Source: a virus (lineage: Duplodnaviria > Caudoviricetes). From it: a stretch of 54,801 nt of DNA. Both the position numbers and the translations under genes were made by a program. The stretch's first letter is position 1. The number at the start of each line of letters is the position of its first letter. The notes below the pieces were generated by a model that searched no databases, was not told the DNA's origin, and saw nothing but the letters and a program-made list of their open reading frames with translations. The stretch spans positions 1 through 54,801 of the IMG/VR virus record IMGVR_UViG_3300030101_000387; one strand, written 5' to 3'. This document shows positions 28,333-43,367 of this stretch, one piece after another.

Positions 28333-29189
28333 TAATCTTCTTCTTCGACATTTACAAATTCAGCAACTAGTGCAGCTTCCTCTTCAGTTACTGAGTCTTT
28401 ATTTTTTTCTTCCCACTGATCTAAAATCTGTGCGTTTTCATTCGTAATGTACTCTAAGAAGTTACTTAGTATTTCCTGATCAGTATGATCAAGCTCAACC
28501 CTTTCTTTAGCATCAAACGTCATAACGTAATAAGTTTCTCCACCTGGCTCTGCCCCAAAGGTAAGAGTGTGTTGTATGGGCAGGATGTTTTTTCTTGATA
28601 AAGCGTTTACCGCAAGATCAAGACGTTTAATACTTGAAGGTGCAATCTCCATAAAGAAAGCGACAGGATCTTTGATGGCGTCTATTTTATTTCCTTGCTC
28701 ATCAACAACCTCTGAGGCGGTCAATATACCAAAGATAATTTTCTTTCTTTTAATGTTTCTAATTATTTCTTTAGTTTTTTCAGGAACAGAATCCCAATCT
28801 TTAATGTAGCCTGATGGTCTACCTAAATTAAATGTACCCATGTTATCTTTAAGGTCACCCTTGAGGTCTGTAGCCATGACGCTCTTCATCATGAAGTCTT
28901 CATCACTATTCCATTTTTTGTATTGCTGTCGAATAGCAAAGATCCTTACTGTAGGATTTGATAAAAATATTTCTTCGTCATTTTGCGTAAGGACATAAGA
29001 ACCTGCAGAAACCACTTCCGTTTTCATAGCCTTACCGTCAACTTCGATCTCACCCATGATACCTTTGTGCATCAAGTTAAGTCTAGCTAAGTTCGATGTT
29101 CGTCTTTCTACTCCGTCAGAATTTGTTACGCCTACCGCTTCTGCGAGAGACATGCCCAGATCTTTTTGCATTGCTAATTCTGTACTCAT
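28332..29189 (-). CDS. putative single-stranded DNA-binding/annealing protein
   Basis: Lies between polymerase and exonuclease; acidic C-terminal tail; own promoter upstream. Confidence 0.55.
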   Translation of the reverse strand: MSTELAMQKDLGMSLAEAVGVTNSDGVERRTSNLARLNLMHKGIMGEIEVDGKAMKTEVVSAGSYVLTQNDEEIFLSNPTVRIFAIRQQYKKWNSDEDFMMKSVMATDLKGDLKDNMGTFNLGRPSGYIKDWDSVPEKTKEIIRNIKRKKIIFGILTASEVVDEQGNKIDAIKDPVAFFMEIAPSSIKRLDLAVNALSRKNILPIQHTLTFGAEPGGETYYVMTFDAKERVELDHTDQEILSNFLEYITNENAQILDQWEEKNKDSVTEEEAALVAEFVNVEEED

Positions 29190-29220
29190 TTTTTTCACTT
29201 CCTTCAAAGTTAAAGATGGT

Positions 29221-29250
29221 TAGTTATACTCTAAACGTCTATTGTGTCAA
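29221..29250 (-). promoter_or_regulatory. promoter TTGACA-N16-TATAACT
   Basis: Minus strand TTGACA caatagacgtttagag TATAACTA, overlapping the polymerase stop. Confidence 0.65.
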
Positions 29251-31279
29251 GCCAATTATCTCCTATCTTGGCTTCAAGTAAGAGAGGCACATTCATTTCT
29301 ATATCGTATGCGTCTTTTATGACACAGTTTAGATTCTTGTTTATAATCTCAACGATAGTCAAGACTTTACGTACTTCGTCAGGGTGCACATCTATTACCA
29401 TAGAGTCATGCACTGTATTGACTAAGCATGATTGTAGAGGTTCAAGCAATCGCTCAAACTCTAGTAGTACTACAGGAACAATATCACCTGTAGCAAATCC
29501 TTGTACTGGGTAATTCTTTATCATAGTAAAGTGTGACACACTACCATTACTCCTTCGAGTCACTTCAGGGAATGCGTATTGTCTACCACTCACATTAGTA
29601 ATTTTTAGAAACCTCACGGCTTCATCACCTAGATTCTTATGCCACTTGGCTACACCTTTATACTTATCAGTAAAGTGTTGGTAGTAAGCAGCTACAGCTT
29701 TAGTTCTACCGTAACCTGTAGCGCCAAAGAGAGGGGCAAAGGTATGCTCCTTTGCTGCCTGACGCTCTGTAGGCTGTCCTGCATTGCTTATTACCTGTGC
29801 CGTGTAGGAATGCACATCAAATCCTGTTTCTATCTCCTGCATGGCTGTGCTGTCTTGTGAAAGAAATGCAGCAACTCTGAACTCCAACTGGGCAAAGTCA
29901 CATTCCATGATCTGACCACCTTCCCAACGTGATATAAACACACGCTTTACTGGAAATGTTCCTCCTCTAGGCATGTTTTGCATGTTGGGATTTCTTCCAG
30001 AAAATCTACCTGTACTGGTGATGTGCTGGGTAAGGCTGACGTGTAAGATTCCGTTAGGTTTGGTGTGTATTTCGATACCATCCACGAAACTGCTAAGGTA
30101 ACTGCTGATAGCAGACAAACGCTTAAGATCAGTAAGAAAGCTAAGAGCAAGCTGCATATTGTTATTCGTAGCGGTAGTAATAAGACTTTCCAAATTACCT
30201 TTACTAGTACTGAATCCATTTGCGCTTATCCAATTTTTGTTTGGTGCAGAAAAACACAACCCTGCTACTTGTTTTGTTTCTTTTAATTGATAGCCTCGGG
30301 TTTCACAGTCTTTACATTTGTTTGCTTTTTTGTAAGGCGTACCGTCTTTTCTTTTCTTGTGCACATACCCACGTCCACCGCATGTTGCACAGGTAAAAGC
30401 TCTAGTCTTTTTAATGATAGAACTATTTGCTTCAACTGCTTCTTTGAACTCTTGTTTTGTATTCGTGTATTCAAACAGATCAGCCCATTCTTTTTTGTTG
30501 TGCACACGTCTACTAAATATAACTTGAGATGCTTGTTCTGGACTGTTGAGATTGATAGGTGTGTCACCCATAAGATCACGAGTCTTGCGCTGCAGCCTGT
30601 CTTCTATCTCAGCTTTCTCTTTCTCAAACTCTATTCGGACTTGCTGAAGGGCGGTTCTGTCCACACGGATTCCTGACATATACATTCTGGTGAGGGCTTT
30701 ACAGGTGCGGAAGGTAATGTCTTTAACTCTATGTAAGGACTCTGATTCTGGCTTTGCGTAGTCTTGTTCCAAGGCAAGGAACAACTCACGAGTAATGTCG
30801 AGGTCACTCCTAAGATAAAAAAGAAGCTCTTGTAAAGGTATCTCATTGGTGTTGTATCCTTTCTTGTAATACTCTTTGAGAGTGTCTTGCTTCTGGTAGT
30901 TTAGATTCCTACGTTCAGCACAAGCCTCAAGACTTATAGGTTCTTTCTTGCCACGTTGTAATAGATACTCAGCTAACATCGTATCATAGATGTCACCGTC
31001 ATACTTGAAACCCGACTCCCACAACCACATCAAGTCATGCTGTGCGTTATGCATAATTAATAAGGTTGTTTTATCTAGTATATCTTGAATGCTTTTTGTT
31101 TTAGAACCTCCAACATCTTGTGACTCTTTATGATTAAGCGTAAACAAATATGTCTCGTTTACTCTGTCTACATTTTGTACACCCACCTGTACAAGTTCAA
31201 GACCAGGTTCAAACGGATCAAGAATGTTTTTCTTTTCTCTTTTAGTTATCGTATTTTCTACGTCAAGTACAAGTCTCAT
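29231..31279 (-). CDS. polA: family A DNA polymerase with DnaJ-like zinc-finger insertion
   Basis: Exonuclease motifs LDVE, HNAQHD, YDTM; CATCGGRG...CKDCETRG; TGRFSG..PN.QN.PR, DFAQLEFR, RQAAKEHTF, NYPVQG, TVHDS. Confidence 0.96.
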   Translation of the reverse strand: MRLVLDVENTITKREKKNILDPFEPGLELVQVGVQNVDRVNETYLFTLNHKESQDVGGSKTKSIQDILDKTTLLIMHNAQHDLMWLWESGFKYDGDIYDTMLAEYLLQRGKKEPISLEACAERRNLNYQKQDTLKEYYKKGYNTNEIPLQELLFYLRSDLDITRELFLALEQDYAKPESESLHRVKDITFRTCKALTRMYMSGIRVDRTALQQVRIEFEKEKAEIEDRLQRKTRDLMGDTPINLNSPEQASQVIFSRRVHNKKEWADLFEYTNTKQEFKEAVEANSSIIKKTRAFTCATCGGRGYVHKKRKDGTPYKKANKCKDCETRGYQLKETKQVAGLCFSAPNKNWISANGFSTSKGNLESLITTATNNNMQLALSFLTDLKRLSAISSYLSSFVDGIEIHTKPNGILHVSLTQHITSTGRFSGRNPNMQNMPRGGTFPVKRVFISRWEGGQIMECDFAQLEFRVAAFLSQDSTAMQEIETGFDVHSYTAQVISNAGQPTERQAAKEHTFAPLFGATGYGRTKAVAAYYQHFTDKYKGVAKWHKNLGDEAVRFLKITNVSGRQYAFPEVTRRSNGSVSHFTMIKNYPVQGFATGDIVPVVLLEFERLLEPLQSCLVNTVHDSMVIDVHPDEVRKVLTIVEIINKNLNCVIKDAYDIEMNVPLLLEAKIGDNWLDTIDV

Positions 31280-32505
31280 GCTAGGAACGTGCTTCTTTCT
31301 ATGTCTAGCTCACAATGTATAGTGCCATGCCAGCCACCCCTAAGTTTATTCTTTGCAATGTTTAAGTGGCGTTGACGTGTTTCTTCTTCACTCATACCTT
31401 CTACTACTTTGTTCTGCGATAAAAGTATCATCAAGTCAGCCTCTGCTGCTTTACCAGTACGGCTACCCTCTAGCATAGATTGATCTGGATGCACTAAACC
31501 TTCTGCTACTGCACTCAATTGAGACATCCATATAACAGCACACTTATACTGCTTTGCTATGTTACGTGCGTGTATTGCAGCCTCTTTTAAATATAAATCG
31601 GATCGTTCACCTTTACCTGATGAAAACTTGTCACCCATATCTAGCACAAGAATGTCTGGTTTAGATTGTTTTACAACAGCCTCAACCCAATCCATATTTT
31701 TACCTGAGCTTTCTTTAATAAAAATATTCTCGTCCACAGGTTTATATCTCAGTGTAGCTAAAGCCCTATTTGCATACACCTCTTCTACGCTCATGTTTGT
31801 AGCTGCACATATATACCTTAAACATACACGTTCATATCCTTCTTCGTTCAGTAAGATAATACATTTAGCCCCTTGCTCCACAAAACCTTTTTCGGATGCA
31901 ATTATACTAGCATGAAAACTTGTTTTACCTGTGTTAGGTCTTGCACCCACAACGATAAAGTGACCAGGGCTAATGCCTTTAACTCTTCGTGCTAATGACG
32001 GTATGTTAAATTTCCATTTAGACTGTTGGTCATTAAGTTTTAATACTGTTTCTAAAGATGTATCATCCCAATCAATAGAAATCTTAGGCAGAAAATTATC
32101 TTCATAATCATTTAGTATACTTCGTAAAGGCTCTAATCCAGTCCTTGAACCGTTGACATAATCAAACCCTACATTGGCAATCTCTTCGCCTATCGTTTGT
32201 TGAAATAGTTTTGACAGAACATCTGTCGCTATCTCTTTATTCAAAGGTTTTTCTTTGGCTATTTTGCTGAATAGATCACGATATAGTTCTCTGTTTGCTG
32301 TAGTCATACTCCTGTTGTTAGACTCAAACAATGCCTGTAGTTCCACAGGAGTAAGGTTCTTGTCGTACGTATCCATAGCGTAGTCTAGTGTTTGCTTGAT
32401 CTTACGTACTTCTTTTGTAAATATTTTATCGGGGCAGCGTATACCTTTGTGATTATTGTAGAACTCTTTGTCCAGCATAGTGTGGATCAATGCTAGTTCC
32501 ATCAT
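31276..32505 (-). CDS. DnaB-like replicative helicase
   Basis: Walker A GARPNTGKT, LNEE, VLDM.DK, SQLS, AKNK. Confidence 0.9.
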   Translation of the reverse strand: MMELALIHTMLDKEFYNNHKGIRCPDKIFTKEVRKIKQTLDYAMDTYDKNLTPVELQALFESNNRSMTTANRELYRDLFSKIAKEKPLNKEIATDVLSKLFQQTIGEEIANVGFDYVNGSRTGLEPLRSILNDYEDNFLPKISIDWDDTSLETVLKLNDQQSKWKFNIPSLARRVKGISPGHFIVVGARPNTGKTSFHASIIASEKGFVEQGAKCIILLNEEGYERVCLRYICAATNMSVEEVYANRALATLRYKPVDENIFIKESSGKNMDWVEAVVKQSKPDILVLDMGDKFSSGKGERSDLYLKEAAIHARNIAKQYKCAVIWMSQLSAVAEGLVHPDQSMLEGSRTGKAAEADLMILLSQNKVVEGMSEEETRQRHLNIAKNKLRGGWHGTIHCELDIERSTFLA

Positions 32506-32526
32506 ACTTGTCTCCTCTTAAGCAGT

Positions 32527-32694
32527 CTAGGAATATGTTGCTGCTATTTTCTTTTGTTGCGCTCTGTCTTGAAGCTCCTTCTGCACGTATGCGTAGTCTT
32601 CTTCTATCTTCTTTTTAGGAAGACCATTTGTAATACGCATGAAGAACTCTAACCTGTTAAGCTCCTCTTCTAGTTTGTCTGTCCTCTTACCCAT
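32527..32694 (-). CDS. hypothetical protein
   Basis: MGKRTDKLEEE..., AGGAG SD. Confidence 0.55.
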   Translation of the reverse strand: MGKRTDKLEEELNRLEFFMRITNGLPKKKIEEDYAYVQKELQDRAQQKKIAATYS

Positions 32695-32857
32695 AACTAG
32701 AGTCTCCTTTTTTATTATTGTAAACCTCATTTAATTGTTTATCGAACTCTTTATCTGCTTTGTATCTATTGCAAGCTTCCAATACTTCATCAACAGTCAG
32801 ATCAACATACACCTTACCTAAAGGTACACGCTCGTCTATTATTGCTGTCTTTATCAT
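32687..32857 (-). CDS. hypothetical protein (56 aa)
   Basis: MIKTAIIDERVPLGKVYVDLTVDEVLEAC...; AAGGAGG SD. Confidence 0.6.
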   Translation of the reverse strand: MIKTAIIDERVPLGKVYVDLTVDEVLEACNRYKADKEFDKQLNEVYNNKKGDSSYG

Positions 32858-32870
32858 CGATCCCTCCTTA

Positions 32871-33020
32871 TCAAAACATCGGATTCATTAGGTCAAATCT
32901 TTCGTACCAACTGCTACCCTCTAAGGCTAACCACATCAGCACAGGCACACCTAGTATAAAAATTATACAAACCAGGAATGCCCAACCTAAACCTTTTGTT
33001 GTACAATACTGTTCAGGCAT
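32871..33020 (-). CDS. small single-pass membrane protein (49 aa)
   Basis: MPEQYCTTKGLGWAFLVCIIFILGVPVLMWLALEGSSWYERFDLMNPMF; overlaps the upstream stop. Confidence 0.6.
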   Translation of the reverse strand: MPEQYCTTKGLGWAFLVCIIFILGVPVLMWLALEGSSWYERFDLMNPMF

Positions 33021-33228
33021 GCTTTACTTTGTACTTCTTGGGGAAGTTTTCCATGTTCATTCCCCTGCTGACTTGCTCTGCAGCCCACGAGTAATCCACA
33101 TTAAAATGTCTAGCTGCGTCAGCTATACTCTTGAAGTCCTTACCGTGTAAACGACAAGCCTTACCTCTTTGCTTGACTGTTGGCTCTACTTTAATACGGA
33201 TATGTACTGGTACGTTCTTTGGTTGCAT
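33013..33228 (-). CDS. small HTH DNA-binding protein (NUMOD1-like)
   Basis: GKDFKSIADAARHFNVDYSWAAEQVSRG. Confidence 0.65.
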   Translation of the reverse strand: MQPKNVPVHIRIKVEPTVKQRGKACRLHGKDFKSIADAARHFNVDYSWAAEQVSRGMNMENFPKKYKVKHA

Positions 33229-33431
33229 TACTTCTCTCCTATGTTTCTGGGTGCATAAACTTCACCGTTGTATTGGCTACCTGTTTCAGTATCTGTTCCG
33301 AAGTTAAAATAAGCTAGTATAACTAGCAGTGCCATTATCCAGTAGAAGGTAACCTTAACCCACTTGATGAATGCCTCGTATGTTTGCTTTGCTTCTAGCT
33401 CTGCTGCGTACTTTGGTTCTACACCCTTCAT
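33228..33431 (-). CDS. small membrane protein resembling aa3-type cytochrome c oxidase subunit IV
   Basis: AKQTYEAFIKWVKVTFYWIMALLVILAYFN matches the T-[FY]-x-[GA]-F-I-K...L-[VI]-[FI]-L-A pattern of Rhodobacteraceae subunit IV. Confidence 0.5.
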   Translation of the reverse strand: MKGVEPKYAAELEAKQTYEAFIKWVKVTFYWIMALLVILAYFNFGTDTETGSQYNGEVYAPRNIGEK

Positions 33432-34219
33432 TAAACTATCTCCTCTAGTTTCTTAATATCAGAACTTACTTTGTACTTGATGTCATCGTCAAGTCTTAAA
33501 GCTATTGTTTCTAATCCAGTGAAAGCTTCTATCTCCTTTTTATATTGCAGTGTCTTTTGTGCAGCGTCTGGATCTAAGGCCACTATAACTTTGTGAAAGC
33601 TATCTAAGTGTTGCATATCTGCCACACCAAAAGATGTACCAAGTATTGCTAAACCTGTTACGCCTGGAAACTCTTGGGCTGCAACCGTAGCACTAATAAC
33701 ATCTTCAACTATTATCACCACACCATTAGGTTTACCGATAGCACGAGTAAACACTGTAGGTGTTCTGTCATATCGTAACCACTTAACTTGTCCTGCGTAG
33801 GAAGTACATCTACCTGTAGCTCCTACCAGTCTACCTCTTTCATGGATAGGAAATACTACACGTTCATCCCTTACATCGTACATCAAGTCCTCCCCTTCTA
33901 GACCCCACCTACTTACAAAGCGTGTGAAATTCTTGTGCTCTGCTGTGGGCTTGACTACATACTCAGGCCAAGTGAATAACTCGTGTTCCGACTCAGGCTC
34001 TTCATACTGATTAAGTCTACGTTGTATTTCTTGTGCTGTCATACCTGAAGACACTACACCTTTAACTCTGCAATCAAGCTTGTAACAATTGTAAAGCATA
34101 GCACTGCCATCTCGTGTAGCAGTGAATGTGTTCTTACCTCTACACACAGGGCAGTCACCCCTATGTCTATAATCTTCTTTTAAATCAAGGGTTTCTAGAT
34201 AGCTTCTAATGTTGTTCAT
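33431..34219 (-). CDS. DNA primase (zinc ribbon + TOPRIM)
   Basis: CPVC...CYKLDC, VVFPI...GR, IIVEDVISA, ALDPDA. Confidence 0.88.
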   Translation of the reverse strand: MNNIRSYLETLDLKEDYRHRGDCPVCRGKNTFTATRDGSAMLYNCYKLDCRVKGVVSSGMTAQEIQRRLNQYEEPESEHELFTWPEYVVKPTAEHKNFTRFVSRWGLEGEDLMYDVRDERVVFPIHERGRLVGATGRCTSYAGQVKWLRYDRTPTVFTRAIGKPNGVVIIVEDVISATVAAQEFPGVTGLAILGTSFGVADMQHLDSFHKVIVALDPDAAQKTLQYKKEIEAFTGLETIALRLDDDIKYKVSSDIKKLEEIV

Positions 34220-35123
34220 TTTTGCTCCTGCGCTTATTAAGTGCATTACTTGCCCCACTAAATGTGTTGACTAGGTATGGCTTAACTGAATCAGGATTCA
34301 CATGACCTGTCACTTGCATCAACTCAAGAGTCTCAACACCTGCCTCTACCATCTCAGTGATTGCAGTCCTGCGTAGATCCATAGCTGTCAATTTCTTTGG
34401 TAGTCGTGCAGCTTCTTTGACTTCGTTGATAGCATCATCGATGTGGTCAACTGCGTAAGGTACGTATGCTCCTGCTACTGGTGTAGTCTTTGGTGCTACG
34501 TAGTCTTGGAATCCAAAGTCTTGGCTTTGTTTCTTAAGCATAGAAAGCAGGTCATCAGGTATAGGTAGATGTACATCAGCACCACGTTTACTTTGTGTTA
34601 AATCAACACGTTGTTCGTTGAAGTTAATGTTATCCCAAGTCAAGGTACGCATGTCTCCAACACGCTGCGCCCACTCGTAAGCCATGTGCACGATCAACCC
34701 AATGCTGCGCCACTTAAAGTTACCGTATGCTGTGTCAAGAAAAGACACTACTTGGTCACGAGTCCATTTGACTTTTCGTGGCTTAGTGTTCTTCGTCTTG
34801 ATCAAACGCACTGGATCATTATCCATTACATCTAACCTCATGCTGCACTTCCATGCCTTAGATAGAACAGCCTTACGATAATTAGCTGTACGCACACCTG
34901 ACACAAGCCATTGCTCGTAAGCCTGGTTAGTGTGTCTAGATTTAATACTACGCACTGTGTAGTTACGTAGCAGCTTACCTTCTACTTTAGTATTGAGTAC
35001 AACATCCAAATGTTTAGCGTAGTCTTTCTGAGACTTTGCACTTAGATTAAGGAAGTCATTACTGTGTAAATAAAAATCTACAATGACTTCTAGCTTAGAT
35101 GTATTCTTTGGTATCTCTCTCAT
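34206..35123 (-). CDS. tyrosine recombinase/integrase
   Basis: AQRVGD (R), QSKR (K), MDLRRT, TGH and Y catalytic positions. Confidence 0.9.
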   Translation of the reverse strand: MREIPKNTSKLEVIVDFYLHSNDFLNLSAKSQKDYAKHLDVVLNTKVEGKLLRNYTVRSIKSRHTNQAYEQWLVSGVRTANYRKAVLSKAWKCSMRLDVMDNDPVRLIKTKNTKPRKVKWTRDQVVSFLDTAYGNFKWRSIGLIVHMAYEWAQRVGDMRTLTWDNINFNEQRVDLTQSKRGADVHLPIPDDLLSMLKKQSQDFGFQDYVAPKTTPVAGAYVPYAVDHIDDAINEVKEAARLPKKLTAMDLRRTAITEMVEAGVETLELMQVTGHVNPDSVKPYLVNTFSGASNALNKRRSKNEQH

Positions 35124-35389
35124 TTTCTCCTCATTTTTATTTTAATCCAACACAACCAAGATTCAAGACAATGGCCTTCTCCCATAATCGAATCTATAAT
35201 GTGTACGATGTTACTCTTTCCCTCCCTTTTCCACTGGTGGTTTCTTGCGCTCAACGTTTGATTGTTTTGACCTCCTAGAATTACGTTTAACAATATGCTC
35301 ACTGCTATCATTATCCGCTTTAGGTAGATGCCCAAGTCTGTCAGTAATGTCATCATGTGGATCATCTTTCGGGTCAACTTCATCATCAT
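35120..35389 (-). CDS. hypothetical membrane-associated protein
   Basis: LNVILGG..NQTLSAR...W...ID.....GHC..SW; stop overlaps the integrase ATG; start uncertain. Confidence 0.6.
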   Translation of the reverse strand: MMMKLTRKMIHMMTLLTDLGIYLKRIMIAVSILLNVILGGQNNQTLSARNHQWKREGKSNIVHIIDSIMGEGHCLESWLCWIKIKMRRK

Positions 35390-35392
35390 GTG

Positions 35393-35500
35393 TCATCTTC
35401 TTTTATTTCTTCCATCGTTGTTACCTTTGTATGTGTCATACACGAACCACACAAATGCGAGTAGATAAACTACGATTATAAGTATCGGTATTTTATACAT
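35393..35500 (-). CDS. 35-aa membrane peptide
   Basis: MYKIPILIIVVYLLAFVWFVYDTYKGNNDGRNKRR. Confidence 0.5.
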   Translation of the reverse strand: MYKIPILIIVVYLLAFVWFVYDTYKGNNDGRNKRR

Positions 35501-35513
35501 TAAAACACTGCTT

Positions 35514-35825
35514 TTACACGTTAATATAAGGGTGAGTATTCATAGTGTACTCTATACCCATCTCGTAGTCAGGACTTGCAGAATATAGCTCTGCTAGTGC
35601 ATCCACTGTAACCCTTACATTATTGTGGAACATACCTGACTTATCCTGATAGTCATCAAAGTCATTGTTTACAGGTATGACTGTAAGTATTTCTTTCCAG
35701 TGTTTCCATCTGTGATCCTCTGGCTTATCATCAGGGTTTAAACACTTACGATGTCTTTCGTATACGTAGATAACTGCATCATGATAGTCACCTACTTTTA
35801 CTTTGTATGTTTTGTCTTCTAACAT
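35514..35825 (-). CDS. hypothetical protein
   Basis: 103 aa, TAATG coupling, AGAGG SD. Confidence 0.65.
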   Translation of the reverse strand: MLEDKTYKVKVGDYHDAVIYVYERHRKCLNPDDKPEDHRWKHWKEILTVIPVNNDFDDYQDKSGMFHNNVRVTVDALAELYSASPDYEMGIEYTMNTHPYINV

Positions 35826-35965
35826 TATTTGCTTCCTCTCTTCTTAGCAAAGTCCTCTACTATTCTTTTGTTTCTGCATATAACTAAGACGTATCCATCC
35901 TTATCATACGCAACCCATTTCTTTTTGCGTTTCATAACGATTAATTTATTCTTAGCTCTAGGCAT
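35825..35965 (-). CDS. small basic hypothetical protein (46 aa)
   Basis: MPRAKNKLIVMKRKKKWVAYDKDGYVLVICRNKRIVE... Confidence 0.5.
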   Translation of the reverse strand: MPRAKNKLIVMKRKKKWVAYDKDGYVLVICRNKRIVEDFAKKRGSK

Positions 35966-36114
35966 GCTAGTGTCTCACTGTTGTTTGATACCAACACAGC
36001 AGCCTCACTCATTGCTGCAGTACACTCTTCTTCACTAGTGTATGTTTCAACGTGGTAGTATTTTACGGACTGCGAATTAACCAGTAGCTGCATCCATACT
36101 AAAGCCCATACCAT
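35941..36114 (-). CDS. small two-cysteine protein with hydrophobic N-terminus (57 aa)
   Basis: MVWALVWMQL...TYTSEEEC...LACLEL; GGAGG SD. Confidence 0.65.
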   Translation of the reverse strand: MVWALVWMQLLVNSQSVKYYHVETYTSEEECTAAMSEAAVLVSNNSETLACLELRIN

Positions 36115-36118
36115 TACA

Positions 36119-36289
36119 TTACCCCTCCTTTTTCTTTACAATGTCTTCGCATATGTTCATCAAGGTTTCAGTTGATTCAGGTGGTATGACTAGTGTCTCA
36201 CCTGTGGCATCGTGAGTGACTCTAAGAGTACCGTTGTCGAGTAACTCTGCCTCCCAACCATGACCTAAACTATGTTTTACGTTAGCCAT
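36119..36289 (-). CDS. hypothetical protein (56 aa)
   Basis: MANVKHSLGHGWEAELLDNG...; TAATG coupling. Confidence 0.6.
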   Translation of the reverse strand: MANVKHSLGHGWEAELLDNGTLRVTHDATGETLVIPPESTETLMNICEDIVKKKEG

Positions 36290-36504
36290 TACCATTCCTT
36301 CCTGTCTGTTTCACTGTAATAAGCATCACTGTATTCTTTTATTTGCTCTTTTGTCATTTGAGCTTTCTCAACTCTACACCCTGTGTACGCACCTTCAGGC
36401 CACCAATGAGGGTCATAGACTCTTCCATAATATCTATCTGAACTACCCCTGTCTTCTGGAGAGCCGTGATCAGGTAGTCCTGTAACATCTCCGTATATAT
36501 TCAT
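36289..36504 (-). CDS. hypothetical protein
   Basis: HGSP.DRG..D.YYGR...PHWWP.G motif. Confidence 0.7.
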   Translation of the reverse strand: MNIYGDVTGLPDHGSPEDRGSSDRYYGRVYDPHWWPEGAYTGCRVEKAQMTKEQIKEYSDAYYSETDRKEW

Positions 36505-36836
36505 TGCTGTGTCTCCTTTTGTTTTTCTGCAATGTCATGTACCCTATCCATGAATACAGCTAATGCTATATTAAAATCTGTTATGCTACAGTTTTCTGCA
36601 ACATCCCTAATATTATCCCAGAAATCATACTTATGTGGTTTTCTTGCCACGGTTCCAGGATTTGGCTTATTGTCTATAACTTCCTTAGCTGCATCATCTA
36701 TTGCACCAGTGAATGTGTTAAGCCACTTGAGTAGGTTGGGCTTGTCCGTTGGTACTTCTACCATGTCAGCTTTAATCTTCTTAGCCTCAGCCTGTGTGCC
36801 TACCCATTCGCCTTGCTTATTCATGTACAATCTCAT
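36501..36836 (-). CDS. hypothetical protein
   Basis: 111 aa, G.W.GTQAEA...VPTDK..LL.WLN; ATGA coupling. Confidence 0.7.
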   Translation of the reverse strand: MRLYMNKQGEWVGTQAEAKKIKADMVEVPTDKPNLLKWLNTFTGAIDDAAKEVIDNKPNPGTVARKPHKYDFWDNIRDVAENCSITDFNIALAVFMDRVHDIAEKQKETQQ

Positions 36837-37045
36837 TTGCCTAGCACCCTCTGTAAATCTTCATCCGTTGTTTCTTTGACGTATACCCAATCGTATATGT
36901 CTTCACCTGCACCTAGTCGTGGCCTGAAGTATCCGACATCTCCTACCTCACCCATGACAACCTTAGCTGCGTTGAATGCATCGATGTCACTGTAGCCTAG
37001 AAACTGCACAGCTTTACCGTTCTTATGATATGTTTTAACTTTCAT
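36833..37045 (-). CDS. hypothetical protein
   Basis: 70 aa in a tightly coupled early array. Confidence 0.6.
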   Translation of the reverse strand: MKVKTYHKNGKAVQFLGYSDIDAFNAAKVVMGEVGDVGYFRPRLGAGEDIYDWVYVKETTDEDLQRVLGK

Positions 37046-37229
37046 TACTTGTACTTACCCTTACATCTAATCGCCAACTGAAACCTACCAAAGTTTTAGA
37101 TGTTGCTAAACCTATATCTATTATATGTTCGTGTATTACATCAGCAATTGTGTCTATTGTGTGACAGTCTAAGTCTTCTGCTGCTATAACGATGTCTTTA
37201 AACTGTCGTTTTTGATAAGGCGTATTCAT
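37035..37229 (-). CDS. hypothetical protein
   Basis: 64 aa, GAGGAG SD. Confidence 0.6.
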   Translation of the reverse strand: MNTPYQKRQFKDIVIAAEDLDCHTIDTIADVIHEHIIDIGLATSKTLVGFSWRLDVRVSTSNES

Positions 37230-37405
37230 GCCAGTATCTCCTCTAGTTGATTGATAATAGCATTGCCCTTGCAGATTTTGTCTACTGCTAGGTGTCTTTC
37301 CTCTTCAGTGTTAAACGGAGACACAGCATCTACTTCCAGTTGTTTGAAGCTAAGTGCCACGTTAACTATCTTCTGTCTGTTAAAAAATAAATCTTGTAGT
37401 TGCAT
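37226..37405 (-). CDS. hypothetical protein
   Basis: MQLQDLFFNRQ..., AGGAGG SD. Confidence 0.55.
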   Translation of the reverse strand: MQLQDLFFNRQKIVNVALSFKQLEVDAVSPFNTEEERHLAVDKICKGNAIINQLEEILA

Positions 37406-37406
37406 T

Positions 37407-37733
37407 TTATTCATCCTCCTTCTTGTGAAACCATGCTCTATCATCGTCAGGTAAAACGTATGGACGCCAATGATTAGGATCACCCTCACTATCTGTTGGT
37501 GGTCTGAAGTTAAACATGTCCTTCAATGTTATAGACATATCCTCTAGTTTACTCACCTTGGTCAAATTAGTATCAAACATCTCCCTGAAGTCCGTGCATA
37601 TTGAATCCATAATCCGATATACTTCTAGTAGTTCTTTTACCTCTTCACGAGTTAGATCTGTCTTTAGTTTTACTTTTTTCTTAGCCATAGTTTTAGCTCC
37701 TTCTATTGCTTCCATTATTTCATCACTGTCCAT
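37407..37733 (-). CDS. hypothetical protein
   Basis: 108 aa (alternative start 37688). Confidence 0.65.
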   Translation of the reverse strand: MDSDEIMEAIEGAKTMAKKKVKLKTDLTREEVKELLEVYRIMDSICTDFREMFDTNLTKVSKLEDMSITLKDMFNFRPPTDSEGDPNHWRPYVLPDDDRAWFHKKEDE

Positions 37734-37734
37734 A

Positions 37735-37836
37735 TCAATAGTCCTCCTCTAATCCTGACCATACGTATGCTAGGTATCGCCAAAAGGTTTTACCAAATGC
37801 TTCATTCATTATGTCTTCTAGTTCTTGTTCAGTCAT
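37735..37836 (-). CDS. 33-aa hypothetical peptide
   Basis: MTEQELEDIMNEAFGKTFWRYL..., GAGG SD. Confidence 0.5.
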   Translation of the reverse strand: MTEQELEDIMNEAFGKTFWRYLAYVWSGLEEDY

Positions 37837-38047
37837 TGTCTTGTACCTCTTCCCAAGTATAGGGATCAAAACTAAAATCATAGTCTGCCCATTTAAAATC
37901 TGATCCATTTTTAGAAAGCCAGTTGTGGATAGCATTCTTTAGATATGTCTTTGATAGTTTGTCCTTACTGTATTCTAGTATATGTTCTGGCACATCTACA
38001 AAACATTCTTTGTAGACTGTCTCCTCTGCTAATACTCTTATCTTCAT
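37829..38047 (-). CDS. hypothetical protein
   Basis: 72 aa, ATGA-coupled to the methyltransferase. Confidence 0.6.
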   Translation of the reverse strand: MKIRVLAEETVYKECFVDVPEHILEYSKDKLSKTYLKNAIHNWLSKNGSDFKWADYDFSFDPYTWEEVQDND

Positions 38048-39063
38048 TGTGTTTCCTCCTTTAATCCTTCAAAGATATGCTTGATAACATCTACTGTCCA
38101 TCCGTTGCCTAGCATCTTGTAGCGTTGTGTGTTCGATACGCCACAGGTATACCCATCAGGTACAGTTTGTAGTCTCTCACATTCTGTTACAGTTAGCTTA
38201 CGCCAATGCATATTATCTATGCTGTCCCATTCATGTCTGTCGTAAGACAAACGCCCTCCTGTCCTGACACATTTAGACTTATCTCGTATCTCTACTTTGG
38301 GTTGAGTATGCCCTCCTGTAGATGCTGTAAGTGTAGGAGATTTACCTTCGGCTGCGTAAACCCTGTTGATTGCTACATACTTATCACTTAGCTTTGCATC
38401 ACCTATATGTATTAACCCATCTTTACTTTTTGGCTCAGGTACATATCCAATAGCGTAGCCATGCGTACCTGCACACACTGTGCCTGACTTACCCTGCTTA
38501 TTTTGCAAGTATTCGCCTGCACGATAGAACTCTGCTGTCTCTTCTTCTAGTATATCTTTGAGCATAATACCTTTGTCTTCTGGCAATCCATCAAAGGGAA
38601 TGTTTGTCCAGTAAAGTCTTTTGCGGTTTTGTGCAGACACTAGCCTACTGTTTATCTCAACAGGTTCTACACCTAGATAGTCAGTAATGACTTGCTCACT
38701 CTCCTTCTTCATCTTGACATTCTCAAGTAGGAAATACTTTGGCTTGAGTTCTTTTAACAGCCTGTCAAACTCAAAGAATAATTTACTGCGTGGATCATCA
38801 AAGTTTAAACCCTTACCGCCAAACGAAAATCCCTGACACGGACTACCGCCAATCAGCAAATCAATCTTGGGTAGAAGTTTGGATGTCACCCATTTAACAT
38901 CACCAACGTGCACCATGTCAGGGTAATTTTTCCTGGCAATCTGGATTGCATACTTGTCAATCTCCGCTGCATAATATTTGTTAACTGGTATGCCTAGCTG
39001 ATCTAATGCGATCTGCCCACAAGACATACCATCAAATAGACTTAGTACGTTTATTTTCTTCAT
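38044..39063 (-). CDS. DNA (cytosine-5) methyltransferase
   Basis: VLSLFDG (motif I), GGSPCQGFS (IV), LLENV (VI), Q.R.R (VIII), ECERLQ..P and RYKMLGNGW (IX/X). Confidence 0.93.
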   Translation of the reverse strand: MKKINVLSLFDGMSCGQIALDQLGIPVNKYYAAEIDKYAIQIARKNYPDMVHVGDVKWVTSKLLPKIDLLIGGSPCQGFSFGGKGLNFDDPRSKLFFEFDRLLKELKPKYFLLENVKMKKESEQVITDYLGVEPVEINSRLVSAQNRKRLYWTNIPFDGLPEDKGIMLKDILEEETAEFYRAGEYLQNKQGKSGTVCAGTHGYAIGYVPEPKSKDGLIHIGDAKLSDKYVAINRVYAAEGKSPTLTASTGGHTQPKVEIRDKSKCVRTGGRLSYDRHEWDSIDNMHWRKLTVTECERLQTVPDGYTCGVSNTQRYKMLGNGWTVDVIKHIFEGLKEETQ

Positions 39064-39177
39064 TTAATTTATTCCTCCAATAAGTAGACATTTCTAGTCG
39101 TATGTATTCTAGCTCAGGATAGTCAACAAATCGTAGCTGTGTTACGCTCAGGTTCACCTTTGTATTTTACAATTACC

Positions 39178-39384
39178 TCAACGAACATCTGCTCTATCCG
39201 TATATGTACAGTACCCCTCGTCAATTAGTCGTTTAGCTGTACGTCCAAACCACCCTTGCAATTGCCACGCTACACCTGTGTCGATCAGGTATTGCCATGC
39301 TGCTGTCTCCTCTTCGATGTCAGACATTACTGACTGTTCACAAATCTCAACAGCGTTTGCTACTGTAAAATTATACTCTTTCAT
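39178..39384 (-). CDS. hypothetical protein
   Basis: AWQYLIDTG.AW.LQGWFGRTA..LI..G.C motif common in phage early regions. Confidence 0.75.
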   Translation of the reverse strand: MKEYNFTVANAVEICEQSVMSDIEEETAAWQYLIDTGVAWQLQGWFGRTAKRLIDEGYCTYTDRADVR

Positions 39385-39388
39385 TTGT

Positions 39389-39739
39389 CTAATCCATTCT
39401 CGTTATAAAATGCTTACCATTTGGTAGTGGTAGAGCCACGATAGCGTAGTCGTAGAAGTATGCATAGCCATGCTTAGTAATCATTCTACCCATGTATGGT
39501 AAATCTGCATCTTCTTCGTGTTCAGATACGTAGTCACCTTCCTCGTTTATCGTGCCTTTAAACTCATACAATCTGCCACAGCCATATCTATCAGTCATGA
39601 ACTTAACTATGTCTGCATCATTATCGTTACCTACATATTCAGCAACCCACATTGGCAGTACCCCTAAAGTTTCTGCAATTTGACTATCGCTGTATTCAGG
39701 GTGTGCTTTGTTGTTAGTGGCTAGCGTTAGTTGTATCAT
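39389..39739 (-). CDS. hypothetical protein
   Basis: 116 aa, G.LP.W...YG.G...Y.YAIVA...RMD. Confidence 0.7.
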   Translation of the reverse strand: MIQLTLATNNKAHPEYSDSQIAETLGVLPMWVAEYVGNDNDADIVKFMTDRYGCGRLYEFKGTINEEGDYVSEHEEDADLPYMGRMITKHGYAYFYDYAIVALPLPNGKHFITRMD

Positions 39740-39923
39740 TTGTTAACCCCTCTTTGATTAAGCTGCGTAGTGCGTGATGCAAAGGTAGATCACCTATGAT
39801 CACATACTTTTTCTTGCTTTCCGAATACCTTTTACTTTGTGCAATCTTTAAGATGTCACTAGGTATCCTACGAGTAGAGAGAACATTTTCCATCTCTATT
39901 ATTTGATTAAGTGTTACTGTCAA
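39714..39923 (-). CDS. hypothetical protein
   Basis: 69 aa, TTG start with AGGAG SD. Confidence 0.55.
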   Translation of the reverse strand: MTVTLNQIIEMENVLSTRRIPSDILKIAQSKRYSESKKKYVIIGDLPLHHALRSLIKEGLTNDTTNASH

Positions 39924-39924
39924 T

Positions 39925-40152
39925 TTACTTCTCCTCTTTTACATCTTCTATGAAAGCAAAGCCTCCACCATTACCCTCCTCATCTTGCGATAGGACAAGA
40001 CTGAAAGTATCGCTTGCTAGTTTCATCTTGAACGTAGGCCAATACTGGTGTGGATCGAACTCGCATTGCTGCATTTTGAAATCCAATATTTTTGCTCCTA
40101 CTAATTGTTTGAACTGCTTATTGTATGCTGGTATTGCGTCTTCAGTAATCAT
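39925..40152 (-). CDS. hypothetical protein
   Basis: Ends LSQDEEGNGGGFAFIE; ATGA coupling. Confidence 0.7.
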   Translation of the reverse strand: MITEDAIPAYNKQFKQLVGAKILDFKMQQCEFDPHQYWPTFKMKLASDTFSLVLSQDEEGNGGGFAFIEDVKEEK

Positions 40153-40565
40153 GATACTATCTCCTCTGTTTTCATGAACCATTGTCTAGCTTGCTGGTTA
40201 GTTAGCTTGTACTCGTTGCCTGATAGAAGATCTTGTGCGATCCACGGCATTTTTCTTGCTTTTGTTTTGTAACCTACTAAACTCATTCTGTATTGGACTG
40301 ACTTATGGTCAACATAGTTTTTAATCTTAGTCGTATCTAAGTTAAACATTGAGGCCATCTGTGTCAGGTCTTTCTGTTCTTTTGTCTCTGCTCCATCAAG
40401 TAATACTCTTACTTTGTAGGTGGCTTCACCGCCATTGTAGTTGCAACTATCAATACTGATCTTATCAATCGGTATATCAATTGTCTCCTCAAATGGATGC
40501 GCTAATAGTAAACTCTGCATTTCAGCACGTAGATTTTTTAGTTGTGTTTTTGTAAAGTTAGTCAC
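40149..40565 (-). CDS. hypothetical protein
   Basis: 138 aa, LVGYK.KARK.PW; GTGA coupling. Confidence 0.7.
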   Translation of the reverse strand: MTNFTKTQLKNLRAEMQSLLLAHPFEETIDIPIDKISIDSCNYNGGEATYKVRVLLDGAETKEQKDLTQMASMFNLDTTKIKNYVDHKSVQYRMSLVGYKTKARKMPWIAQDLLSGNEYKLTNQQARQWFMKTEEIVS

Positions 40566-40741
40566 GTTGTAGTCTCCTCTGTATAATTATTAATTAGTTC
40601 TTCTAATTCATCTTTAGATACACTTTTTCCTAGATAATATTCTGCCCTGTCCTCAATAACAAAGTCCATTAACTCTTCTAAAGTCCACGCAGCAATCATA
40701 GCTTCAACTGCTTCTATTATTTTATCATCTTTGTATGCCAT
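40562..40741 (-). CDS. acidic hypothetical protein (59 aa)
   Basis: MAYKDDKIIEAVEAMIAAWTLEELMDF..., AGGAGG SD. Confidence 0.65.
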   Translation of the reverse strand: MAYKDDKIIEAVEAMIAAWTLEELMDFVIEDRAEYYLGKSVSKDELEELINNYTEETTT

Positions 40742-40752
40742 TGTGTTTCCTC

Positions 40753-41469
40753 CTATGCGTCCACAACGAATCCTGTTGTGTCTTTCTTGGCTTTACCCTT
40801 TGCGTACAATGCAACAATAGAATTGCTAGGGTCAAGAAAGCGTAAGTCATCTTTGTCACCGTCTGTCACATTTATCCCACGCCACTGTGATAGCTTGTAC
40901 TCCTTACGAAACACCACTGCTGCATTCATACCGTTGTTGAGTGCGTCTTGTAGCTTGTCAGCATACTTATCATTTGCACCTGAGTAAGACCACGTTAAGT
41001 GATAGTTGAATATGTCCTTAGTCTTCCTGTTAGAAATCTTGGTGTAGTCGTAGAATTGCACAGATGGGAATAGCTCAAAGATATTTTGACCATCTACCTT
41101 GATTGTCTCCCAACGTATGTCAGTTGTACCGTTCAGTCTTACGCATGGCTGAATGCCACGCTTCTCACAATAGTTTGTAAATTTGTGTATATCTATAACA
41201 AGCTGATCCATGAAACCCTTACGATCTTTGTAAAACCATTCAGTCTTACGCATTCGTGCAGCTTGCACATTATTGAACGCACCACGCCCTGCTGTGTACA
41301 AACAAGCGTCAATACAGTTTGCTTGTTCAGCCATAGGGCAAGAGTTGAAAGCCTTACCATCCACCATAACTTTCCACGGTGTCATATATAGGATAGCTGT
41401 TAGGTATTCGCTACCATCACCTTTGATAGTTTTGGCATTAGTGCCAACTCCTAATAGTTTGTATGTCAT
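40753..41469 (-). CDS. Gp88-like protein with Cys triad
   Basis: NAKT.K, CPMAEQANCIDACL, RLNGTTDI.W, FYDYTK, GD..DLRFLD, L.AKG.A..D..GFV. Confidence 0.75.
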   Translation of the reverse strand: MTYKLLGVGTNAKTIKGDGSEYLTAILYMTPWKVMVDGKAFNSCPMAEQANCIDACLYTAGRGAFNNVQAARMRKTEWFYKDRKGFMDQLVIDIHKFTNYCEKRGIQPCVRLNGTTDIRWETIKVDGQNIFELFPSVQFYDYTKISNRKTKDIFNYHLTWSYSGANDKYADKLQDALNNGMNAAVVFRKEYKLSQWRGINVTDGDKDDLRFLDPSNSIVALYAKGKAKKDTTGFVVDA

Positions 41470-41487
41470 TGTCTGTCCTCCGTTTGT

Positions 41488-41546
41488 GTTACTTCATGAG
41501 GGTGCACCTACTTGGGAGGTTTTTAGATACACCCACAAAAAGTAAC
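41488..41546 (-). promoter_or_regulatory. long imperfect hairpin before the first early RBS (RNase III-like processing site)
   Basis: GUUACUU..UG.GGGUGUAUCUA-loop-UAGGUGCACCC.CA..AAGUAAC, about 20 bp, ends just upstream of GGAGG. Confidence 0.55.
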
Positions 41547-42005
41547 TTGATTAGTATAGCTACACCCCGAACCCATGCGTCAATAGCGCAAGGATAGGTT
41601 GGCCCATCTTAGCTCAGGGTGTAACCGAATAGTCACAATCTGTTAGCTCTGGTGGCGTTACAGCTCACCAATACGTGCGCTAGTCTTCCTTGGTCTAGCG
41701 TAGTATCCACCCTTTAAGAGCACCCTATAGACAAGCAGCTTCCAGGCCTGTCCTTGCAGGTTAGCCCATGCAATTAAGCAAAATCGGCAACATACGTTCA
41801 TCACGAGTATACTATCAGGCATACTAGCTGTAATAAGTTATTCTATAATCGTTAGTCTGTTTGTTTTTCTTTCTAGTTAGTTTGTAGTCGTTTAGTCTGT
41901 TAGTCATTTGATAGGGCGTTTCACCGTATCCGTCTAAGGACTCTGTTAGTATGAGGATCAAGAGTTTTTAAACTTACTCTCAAGCTAACTTGTCGCTTTC
42001 GATGT
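41488..42005 (-). ncRNA. candidate large structured non-coding RNA / early leader
   Basis: No ORF; many helices with G-U pairs favouring the minus strand; sigma70-like promoter just upstream. Confidence 0.6.
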
Positions 42006-42009
42006 ATCT

Positions 42010-42039
42010 ACAATAACCCGAACATTTATTGAATTGCAA
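42010..42039 (-). promoter_or_regulatory. early promoter TTGCAA-N18-TATTGT
   Basis: Read on the minus strand with an A-tract upstream; points into the structured leader. Confidence 0.5.
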
Positions 42040-42408
42040 TAGGTTTTTTGCAGATTGTGTGCAGATTGTTGTTAAGCTATTGATATTGAACAAAAAGAAT
42101 ATGTGCATCGTATGGGGTATATTCGACACAATCTTGCTAGGGGTATGGTTTTTTTCATCTATATTGCACCTGCTGAAACTGTATCAGTAGCGCATAATAG
42201 TAAAAACAATAGCTTAACAGGTGTTTTACTATGCAGAACTAACTTAGAATGATTCTAAAAGTGTAAACCACATCGAAAAACCCATAAAAACAAGGCATCC
42301 AACATTTTATTTATCGGGTAGGGCAGGGGCCACGGTGGGGGTCTACGTTATACGTATATGTACAAATACACACACGAGGTTTTTCACAGGGTTACGCAAC
42401 GTAATGTA

Positions 42409-42440
42409 TTGACAGGTGCTTGACATTCTTTATAACTATG
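42409..42440 (+). promoter_or_regulatory. promoter TTGACA-N16-TATAACT
   Basis: TTGACA ggtgcttgacattctt TATAACTATG. Confidence 0.6.
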
Positions 42441-42754
42441 GGGGTAAGGGGGCATGTTTAACATTTATGTTATTACATACAAAAGTTAAATAAAAAAAAA
42501 ATAGTAAAAACATTAATGTTTAACATAGGAGAGAGTTAATCCCTATACTAGTAACGATAAGAAAAGCTGTTGACAGTATTTTATTGTAAATGTTAAACTT
42601 ATTTCAGTTGCATGTAACGATAACAATAAAACTTTGTAACTATGTGTGTAGATTATCTGTGTAAGTTATAACCGCAGTAGTAGTCTCCTCCTCTCTCTCT
42701 ATGTAGTTTGTACTTAGACGTGGTAGTCTACACACGTTTTTGTATAAATTTTTC

Positions 42755-42783
42755 TTGACAATGAAAAACAAAACGGTAAAACT
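42755..42783 (+). promoter_or_regulatory. promoter TTGACA-N16-TAAAACT
   Basis: TTGACA atgaaaaacaaaacgg TAAAACT. Confidence 0.5.
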
Positions 42784-43018
42784 GTATGCATCCGAAGATG
42801 TATTGAGTGATTTCTATAACGCATTGGCTAATAATGATGCTAGTGCGATACGTAAAGTTCACATTCCAAAGTCGGATGTATTTTACGTAAGAGAAGCTCT
42901 GTACAATCGCACTGGTGAGTGGTATACACTGGACCATGTAGAACGTGCCATGTATCTTGAAGGTATGCTTACTAGATATGAGGTGCTAGATCCAGATAGG
43001 GAACGTGAGTATGGATAA
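42761..43018 (+). CDS. hypothetical protein
   Basis: HIP.SDVFYVREA...TG..Y.LDHVERAMYLEG; start uncertain. Confidence 0.65.
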   Translation: MKNKTVKLYASEDVLSDFYNALANNDASAIRKVHIPKSDVFYVREALYNRTGEWYTLDHVERAMYLEGMLTRYEVLDPDREREYG

Positions 43019-43367
43019 TATGAAACTACCTATAGCACTCGTAGTAGCGATGGGTGCACAATTAGCAGGTGGTGTGTGGTGGGTATCACAACAAGCTGCT
43101 ACTATATCAAGCCTCGAAGAAACCGTATCACAGTTTGCTAGCAAGATGGCTGTAGAAGATAACGTTAATCTTAAACGTGACGTGCTAGACAACATGGATT
43201 ACATCGATGGTGCATTCGCTGAGATAGAAGAACTCTGGGAAGAAACAGAAAGCCTAACTAAAACGATAGGGGCTATTACTGCTTTACAACAACGCATGGC
43301 TTTAATGGAAAACAGTTTGAAGTTTATGAACCGTGACCACATGGAAATGCTAGACCCAAGGAAATAG
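43011..43367 (+). CDS. membrane-anchored coiled-coil protein
   Basis: N-terminal TM (LPIALVVAM..QLAGGVWW) followed by a heptad-rich region. Confidence 0.65.
   Translation: MDNMKLPIALVVAMGAQLAGGVWWVSQQAATISSLEETVSQFASKMAVEDNVNLKRDVLDNMDYIDGAFAEIEELWEETESLTKTIGAITALQQRMALMENSLKFMNRDHMEMLDPRK

Follow-up and report, generated by a model that had tools for sequence, protein, structure and literature searches.

The first early gene of a phage recorded in IMG/VR as IMGVR_UViG_3300030101_000387 is preceded on the minus strand by an untranslated leader of ~540 nt. This record, a complete virus record with terminal repeats, was analysed over its whole length of 54,801 nt and is called the window below. 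The leader is a chain of separable modules and not a single 530-nt multi-junction fold: it comprises two widespread covarying modules, the 5' module and a three-way junction, and in addition a subgroup-specific 3' hairpin, with a linker that lacks structure and a middle part with little support connecting them. Compensatory changes in relatives show that the 5' module, the three-way junction, and the 3' hairpin are conserved as minus-strand RNA structures, and support from covariation is limited to these three. The modules were found in viral contigs only, at the head of an operon whichever gene comes first. In order of transcription, the features are as follows (R1 and R2 are covariance models):

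42034-42039, minus strand: -35-like box TTGCAA of the putative early promoter, at a fixed distance upstream of ACATCG (consensus)
42010-42015, minus strand: putative -10-like box TATTGT, 18 nt after the -35 box
41903-42008, minus strand: 5' module, ~100 nt (R2, 97.2 bits; the centroid fold has the same architecture)
41910-41930, minus strand: hairpin P4 of the 5' module, after P1-P3
41832-41902, minus strand: linker, unstructured (minimum free energy 0), A-rich and G-poor, with (G)ACUAA repeats
41651-41831, minus strand: middle part, subgroup-specific, with several hairpins (variable hairpin at ~41731-41757)
41544-41650, minus strand: three-way-junction module (R1, 99.8 bits)
41611-41626 with 41558-41573, minus strand: helix P1 of the junction, 16 bp (minimum-energy fold and covariation)
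41593-41608, minus strand: hairpin 1 of the junction, 6 bp, loop CCAA
41576-41590, minus strand: hairpin 2 of the junction, 4 bp, loop CUAUUGA
41488-41546, minus strand: 3' hairpin, 21-bp imperfect stem, invariant loop with CCUCCC at 41514-41519 (folding and covariation)
41477-41481, minus strand: Shine-Dalgarno sequence GGAGG, 7 nt upstream of the first early gene's ATG (41469; read from the sequence)
40753-41469, minus strand: first early gene, Pfam GP88 (PF17338; E = 7.4e-46)

Relatives of the leader were sought in 80 viral loci fetched through the GP88 protein (L-numbers designate these and other relative loci). Blastn of the gap detected the junction region only in L003 and L001 (cut in L001), and compensatory changes were already visible in this alignment. 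Iterated nhmmer searches yielded ten junction copies, which were aligned without difficulty (alignment A4). As a control of pairing, the share of paired cells with the true partners was compared with that obtained when the partners were slid. In A4, the ten sequences of which were found by similarity and which is thus free of model-fitting bias, 99.2% of cells pair vs. 34-48% with slid partners, and 15 of the 26 pairs have changed on both sides. A larger alignment of 58 distinct copies gave 97.7% vs. 34-47%, with 22 of 26 pairs changed on both sides; these rows were fitted to R1, which favours pairing. The 16-bp helix with two hairpins that a sequence-only reading of the window had drawn here is therefore upheld both by the minimum-energy fold and by compensatory changes in relatives, and among homologues, where it had proposed to look for covariation, pairs have changed on both sides in the junction as well as in the 5' module (20 of 29 pairs, see below).

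Searching IMG/VR with a DNA pattern based on the conserved loops gave 84 matches, and R1 recognized the junction in 68 of these pattern-selected viral contigs (66 of 80, with 58-110 bits, and two of a further four). Among prokaryotic genomes (596 Gb), the same pattern had 52 matches, which by our own estimate is about the chance number for its 17 fixed bases; none was a full-length R1 match, and two were weak partials of 21 and 18 bits. R1 also found eight junctions, with the same loops, in 47 loci obtained through the 5' module and hence independently of the loop pattern. The loops GCCAAC and CUUGA are invariant among junction copies. Conserved nucleotides concentrate in the loops and in the junction strands (AA, CU, and UG), while the stems covary. 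The pairs adjacent to the junction (A-U, G-U, C-G, and U-G) are nearly fixed, and the remainder of P1 varies freely. One U-G pair of the module is kept in all 58 distinct copies. As read directly from the sequences, the loops CCAA and UUGA could pair with each other through CAA/UUG. In most copies, P1 is flanked by an outer stem of ~8-10 pairs (mean -6.9 vs. -4.1 kcal/mol for shuffled flanks), and its z-score lies below -2 in 25 of 68 junctions. The TTGAC of the hairpin-2 loop was considered as a promoter element and rejected; a usable -10 box at the proper spacing is missing. A near-copy of junction hairpin 1 (AUGGGCCAACCU, 41596-41607) occurs in the middle part of the window as AUGGGCUAACCU (41758-41769).

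The second widespread module occupies the first ~100 nt after the putative promoter, which are conserved in more distant loci than the junction. In its helix P1, the first nucleotides of the transcript, UCGAAAG.GAC, are paired with GUC.CUU..GA (GUC.CUUUUGA). Within P1 lie the long helix P2 and a small hairpin, P3, which bears a conserved CUUGAUCC; P2/P3 occurs in two versions, with and without the conserved CUUGAUCC. Iterated nhmmer recovered 14 copies in 83 sequences and 40 copies (32 distinct) in 167. RNAalifold on a plain MAFFT alignment missed the variable helices of this module, and the structure was placed by hand and followed by model-based realignment. With the hand-placed structure, 86.2% of cells pair in the 14-sequence alignment vs. 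35-46% with slid partners, and 14 of 29 pairs have changed on both sides. In 27 distinct modules of the first R2 set these values were 88.6% vs. 36-46% and 20 of 29. Folds of single copies agree on one architecture. R2 matched 28 times in a set of 100 sources, 29 times (27 full-length) in 47, nine times in 63, and once in 4. In the window it has one match only, and the late operon is without a copy.

Upstream of 46 distinct 5' modules, the consensus shows a TTGCAA-type box at constant spacing, preceded by A-rich sequence and followed by an A/T-rich hexamer and then ACATCG. Because this upstream region is conserved, transcription of the window leader is predicted to start near 42003-42008, and in the 46 loci the 5' module begins within a few nucleotides of the predicted start. 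Relatives have varied A/T-rich hexamers in place of TATTGT, and a simple promoter scan did not list the TTGCAA/TATTGT pair. The place given to the leader by the sequence-only reading, at the head of the early operon and downstream of a promoter, agrees with this conserved promoter-like box.

The 3' hairpin was found in all five window-like leaders, i.e., in this phage and four relatives only. Its loop AAAACCUCCCAA is identical in the five copies, and both halves of the stem carry compensatory changes in L260 and L256. The CCUCC in this loop could pair with the GGAGG at 41477-41481, and neither of the two sequences varies among the copies. With the full 21-bp stem formed, however, the 6-nt tail probably would not extend as far as the loop, and the CCUCC/GGAGG pairing would need an opened hairpin. 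The 5' strand of the hairpin resembles the 3' strand of junction P1 (direct repeats 41524-41534 and 41557-41567, 10 of 11 bases the same), which may be the trace of a duplication. A strand-exchange switch between P1 and this hairpin was rejected: the changes in L260 are compensated inside the hairpin and not in P1.

The middle part was found only in the window, L003, L256, and L260 and is nearly invariant there. Its variable hairpin reads GACAGGC/GCUUGUC or GCCAGG/CCUGGC, and UGC/GCA of a middle-part hairpin is replaced by CUC/GAG in L256, both sides being changed. Several stems proposed for the leader by the sequence-only reading were lost on comparison. The segment with the two window hairpins CGCUAG/CUAGCG and UGGUG/CACCA is replaced by a different single hairpin in L003, L256, and L260. 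AGAGU/ACUCU is not kept in relatives, where an inner register (AGUU/AACU vs. GGC/GCC) is kept instead. As for the suggested long-range closures, UAGUAU pairs locally in both the regional fold and a four-sequence RNAalifold consensus, and AUACUA aligns with the conserved 3' internal loop of the family, UUACUGAA; these closures are therefore unsupported.

Linkers of 47 distinct relatives consist of 49% A, 19% C, 13% G, and 19% T and contain ACTAA 137 times. TTGAC was present in 34 of 45 distinct linkers, mostly as CTTGACTA, and in ~21 of the 45 it is followed after a constant 17 nt by AAGACT(GAATAC) (e.g., L013, ~2275-2320). This TTGACT-N17-AAGACT arrangement looks like a second, internal promoter of the sigma-70 type, and tandem promoters may thus be common in the early regions of relatives. 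The CTTGACTA/AAGACT arrangement is absent from the window linker (41832-41902).

The sequence of 41488-42005 is as the sequence-only reading described it, and so is its assignment to a minus-strand RNA. The region 41470-42010 folds on the minus strand with -150.5 kcal/mol (z = -2.97; 1 of 100 shuffles equally good) and on the plus strand with z = -1.06 (10 of 100). For the junction module piece (41544-41650), the respective z-scores are -2.86 (3 of 200 shuffles) and -0.46. We assign the feature to a minus-strand RNA because many of its pairs are G-U and because every model match is co-oriented with the downstream open reading frame (ORF). The dense structure over ~530 nt did not hold up. Comparison with shuffled sequences, which had been proposed as a check, favours only part of the leader: the whole minus strand, the junction, and the 3' hairpin (41488-41546; z = -6.16, 0 of 200 shuffles) fold better than shuffles, while the 5' module piece (106 nt, 41903-42008; z = -1.60, 12 of 200), the middle piece (41651-41800; z = +0.35, 117 of 200), and the linker piece (41832-41905; no fold, 0 kcal/mol, 200 of 200) do not, all on the minus strand. 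The claim that the region holds no ORF is correct for coding but not for mechanical ORFs, of which there are three with 54, 45, and 25 codons' worth of amino acids (aa). In relatives, the 54-aa frame is interrupted by indels (23 nt deleted, 4 nt inserted) and, in L256, by a stop codon, and all five substitutions in its otherwise invariant part alter the residue (read directly). The coding reading was thus rejected.

No known RNA family was recognized, as the sequence-only reading had supposed. Rfam 15 (4227 models) gave no match at gathering score in the whole window and none at E<=10 in the region 41300-42700, riboswitch models included, and ARAGORN detected no tRNA or tmRNA gene in the window. 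A catalogue of 8,495 unnamed candidate structured RNAs of 29-151 nt has been drawn from IMG/VR (PMC10690425; Fremin, Bhatt, and Kyrpides, 2023). According to the accessible part of its text, these candidates share with our modules the data source, the intergenic evidence from covariation, and, for many motifs, a position <=25 nt upstream of genes; GP88 and a three-way junction are not mentioned in that part. Either module may already be among the 8,495 candidates.

For the relatives, 68 distinct full-length junctions were counted (one weak hit, in L061, was dropped). In 54 of them, a start codon preceded by a Shine-Dalgarno-like word lies <=25 nt (usually 8-25 nt) from the 3' end of the R1 match; in 12 the distance is 48-107 nt and in one 195 nt, while in the last the contig ends too early. 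Blastp sorted the 66 first ORFs into 29 clusters, and GP88 is one cluster with five members. The 5' module and the junction are frequent partners and separable. Where at least 500 nt of upstream sequence was available (62 distinct junctions), R2 matched on the same strand in 33 cases and not in the other 29. Conversely, 49 distinct 5' modules either had a partner or sufficient sequence downstream to look for one; 36 are accompanied by a junction and 13 are not. The start-to-start distance in the 36 same-strand pairs (three of them with <500 nt upstream) is 148-446 nt. In L256 (567-700), the 5' module has the other P2/P3 type, and the remaining leader is window-like. This points to recombination between leaders at module borders, and since L256 joins the other type to a window-like remainder, the modules appear to be shuffled among phages.

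The slot of the first gene varies even among near-identical leaders. L003, L001, L256, and L260 have a small ORF (51-123 aa, several clusters) after the same Shine-Dalgarno sequence, with GP88 in second place. L006/L007 and L009/L028, which have the 5' module without the junction, carry a different conserved block of ~64 nt just before the first gene; this block may be an alternative module beside the ribosome-binding site.

Sequences from RNA libraries were compared with 40300-43300. Ten RNA-library runs contain small shares of the leader's words, and three studies have RNA-library contigs that map within the leader, spanning 41601-41994: one of 248 nt (41663-41905), one of 352 nt (41601-41839), and two of 151 nt each (41796-41885 and 41899-41994). 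Differences in these contigs cluster in the variable hairpin. The flanking genes are not covered, which is uninformative since the runs were chosen with the leader. Further RNA-library pieces, of 31-35 nt on the A-rich 42481-42521 and one at 43209-43243, are likewise uninformative. As evidence of transcription, the RNA-library contigs are weak.

The gene block 23678-41469 on the minus strand, ~18 kb long, represents the early/replication operon. Its genes overlap or abut and encode a C5 methylase, tyrosine integrase, DnaB-type helicase, PDDEXK nuclease, endonuclease I, class II ribonucleotide reductase, and a family A DNA polymerase (PolA) with a DnaJ-type CXXCXGXG insert. The opposite block runs on the plus strand from 42740, wrapping to 23025, and includes the large terminase, SU10-type portal, and adaptor. 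RNA polymerase was not found among the 20 larger window proteins scanned. The leader lies within the 1,270-nt gap separating the two divergent blocks, where the strand skews switch, and a simple scan of the minus strand at 40500-43200 listed no site resembling an intrinsic terminator. Phages of the HMO-2011 type have abundant marine bacteria as hosts. Near the leader, Puniceispirillum phage HMO-2011 was the sole GenBank phage with DNA similarity, which is confined to the first early gene. Judging from its genes, this is a podophage of the HMO-2011 type; both its integrase and the insert in its polymerase match the features given for this type in PMC6918029, the accessible text of which has proteins as its subject and does not deal with the leader. 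Our literature search found no published work on early-gene control in HMO-2011-type phages, structured RNA included.

Elsewhere in the divergent gap, a G-rich block of ~50-60 nt (window 42322-42384) is 94-98% identical in L005, L006, and L007 and is recognizable also in L012, L018, L019, L047, and L049, where the surrounding gap is not alignable. It had no Rfam match at E<=10; the host or the packaging process could have fixed such a site, e.g., as an attachment or end sequence. Promoter-like sites on the plus strand at 42570-42599 and 42409-42440 face the structural operon; one of them is TTGACA-18-TAAACT with a TG extension, and a doubled TTGACA lies upstream.

We give about an even chance to the view that this RNA is a cis-acting leader of the early operon, concerned with 5'-end stability or termination and with translation or processing of the first gene. 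A helix using the first transcript nucleotides is known to protect bacterial mRNA from 5'-end-dependent decay. The 5' module would likewise shield the 5' end of the transcript and/or give resistance to termination across the long untranslated linker. The junction on its stalk beside the ribosome-binding site would serve as a docking or processing platform, with a protein, the ribosome, or RNase III as partner, and this platform would set the translation of the first ORF. As the genes of the operon overlap or abut, such control could spread by coupling and polarity to the whole early operon, including the integrase and replication genes. With its invariant loops and a stalk that would not easily be displaced, the junction looks like a fixed platform for docking or processing rather than a switching aptamer. 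A role in cis is favoured over a decoy because in relatives the junction adjoins the ribosome-binding site of whatever gene comes first.

Several observations weigh against this cis-acting leader. In the window itself, the junction lies 75 nt from the start codon, and the outer stem is missing there (weak, z about 0) as well as in L003, L001, and L256; with this spacing and weak stem, the argument that the junction adjoins the ribosome-binding site rests on the relatives. Nor do relatives pair their Shine-Dalgarno sequence in a consistent way (read directly), so that a simple on/off mechanism is not apparent. Both modules can be found singly (29 of 62 junctions and 13 of 49 5' modules), and the 5' module alone folds no better than shuffles, as given above. 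Blastn of two leader types against 50,697 GenBank phages had no match, and thus no cultured phage carrying the leader was found in that set. The RNA-library contigs show neither strand nor ends, may derive from DNA carry-over, and come from runs chosen with a leader query. Finally, loops that never change on a stalk that does would also be expected of an aptamer for a ligand or factor, or of a trans-acting RNA.

Known systems can be likened to the leader by arrangement and not by membership; the features of lambda, T7, put, C4/CI, and phi29 used here are general background. The lambda N leader has the nutL site and then an RNase III-sensitive hairpin beside the N ribosome-binding site. Our leader shares with it the long untranslated region before the first early gene, the use of host polymerase, an RNA element near the 5' end, and a helix before the ribosome-binding site; it differs in having a conserved three-way junction on that helix, and neither a boxA/boxB-like sequence nor an N-like protein is identified here. 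The T7 early leader has an RNase III site before gene 0.3, with simple hairpins lacking conserved junction loops. Both are early regions of podophages with an internal-loop stalk just upstream of the first gene, and relatives of our phage may, like T7, have tandem promoters, but the phages are unrelated, and no RNA polymerase was seen among the proteins scanned here. The shape of an RNase III-type stalk, a near-continuous helix of ~20 bp or more before a gene, is predicted for 41488-41546 (21 pairs) and, in relatives, for the 16-bp P1 with the outer stem beside the Shine-Dalgarno sequence.

Such stalks also bear on a different and unlikely explanation, in which the leader is cut at the stalk or at the 41488-41546 hairpin (e.g., by RNase III) and released as a noncoding RNA that would act in trans by sequestering a host factor (decoy or sponge). 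The product would be a stable RNA with both ends helical, the ACUAA repeats and invariant loops being its binding sites. Consistent with this, the two ends of the leader are both within helices, stalks of >=20 bp precede the ribosome-binding site, ACTAA is frequent in the 47 linkers, and the loops are invariant across divergent phages; the RNA-library contigs cover parts of the leader only, which is weak and biased evidence and cannot show a processing site. A trans-acting RNA, however, has no need of the tight spacing between junction and start codon seen in 54 of 68 copies, and the modules are shuffled and also occur singly.

Leader-derived regulatory RNAs are known from temperate phages, namely, the C4 antisense RNA of P1/P7 and the CI RNA of P4. 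As in these, the RNA here is encoded in the leader of the operon that would be controlled, a closing stem bears two hairpins, and the phage has an integrase. Unlike in C4 and CI, the loops are invariant across phages and do not specify immunity, and Rfam has no match. A C4-like search for targets in cis was negative: among the 68 flanks on each side, the six-letter complement of loop 1 occurred in five upstream and two downstream and that of loop 2 in five and three, respectively, which is about the expectation from shuffles. An excess of GTTGG downstream is explicable by the conserved GP88 coding sequence, at least in copies followed by GP88. The pRNA of phi29 is a three-way junction on a long 5'/3' helix with two mutually complementary loops. 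The junction described here also stands on a long helix, has complementary loops, and is encoded at the start of the early transcript; it differs in that there is no Rfam match, the phage has a large terminase and an SU10-type portal, and the motif adjoins a ribosome-binding site.

Rather improbable is processive antitermination, in which the 5' module, similar to put or nut, would modify the host polymerase for passage through a Rho-prone linker and the ~18-kb operon. The put RNA of HK022 consists of two stem-loops in ~70 nt. Both it and the 5' module are structured RNAs right after an early promoter in a phage relying on host polymerase. Like put and nut sites, the 5' module lies shortly after a promoter, here the conserved promoter-like box of the 46 distinct loci. 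An antitermination role would also agree with the RNA polymerase not found among the scanned proteins, with the long, unstructured, G-poor untranslated linker that comes after the 5' module, and with the combination of this module with different downstream modules. On the other hand, the 5' module has four helices in ~100 nt and is set beside put by description only, the linker is A-rich rather than C-rich, and the late operon lacks a copy.

That the three-way junction is a riboswitch, i.e., a small-molecule aptamer which reports the state of the host and tunes translation of the first gene, appears more doubtful still. Its aptamer-like fold is conserved with covariation, conservation is placed in junction strands and loops, possible CAA/UUG pairing between the loops recalls kissing-loop junction aptamers, and the motif adjoins the ribosome-binding site. 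The downstream genes, however, are unrelated (29 clusters among 66 ORFs) and give no association with a single pathway. The 2-nt junction strands, together with the 16-bp stalk and outer stem, would be too stable for easy displacement; a terminator was not found in the scan, sequestration of the Shine-Dalgarno sequence is not consistent, and no riboswitch model of Rfam matched even at E<=10. A DNA-level element (replication origin, operator array, or promoter cluster with RNA folds as by-products), suggested by the location in the 1.27-kb divergent gap with its skew switch, the repeated GACTAA-type words, and the fixed-spacing TTGACT-N17-AAGACT of relatives, is very improbable, as compensatory changes keep G-U pairs, for which the opposite strand would have A-C, folding of the plus strand does not exceed that of shuffles, and all model matches are oriented with the downstream ORF; this explanation can hold for the linker at most and not for the structured modules.

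A more speculative and rather unlikely extension is that the leader RNA works as a two-part sensor, in which the 5' domain engages the host polymerase or a host factor and the junction, as an aptamer, reads a conserved host molecule. The candidate molecule would be a protein, a segment of tRNA or rRNA, or a metabolite. If this is true, the sensor would be an undescribed kind of RNA-based switch, set by host state or between lysis and lysogeny, for translation of the early operon, and it would be the first RNA made by one of the most abundant phage types of the ocean.

None of the modules matches an RNA family described in Rfam. We infer from the sequence comparisons that the leader is a kind of structured phage early-operon leader with a cis-regulatory function. 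Few structured RNAs are known from marine phages, and the leader adds two well-supported families to them. A partner from host or phage could be sought with the invariant loops, carried on their variable stalk, as bait, and two strongly covarying modules, found in viruses only and at the head of the operon, give a testable handle on early control in phages that rely on host polymerase.

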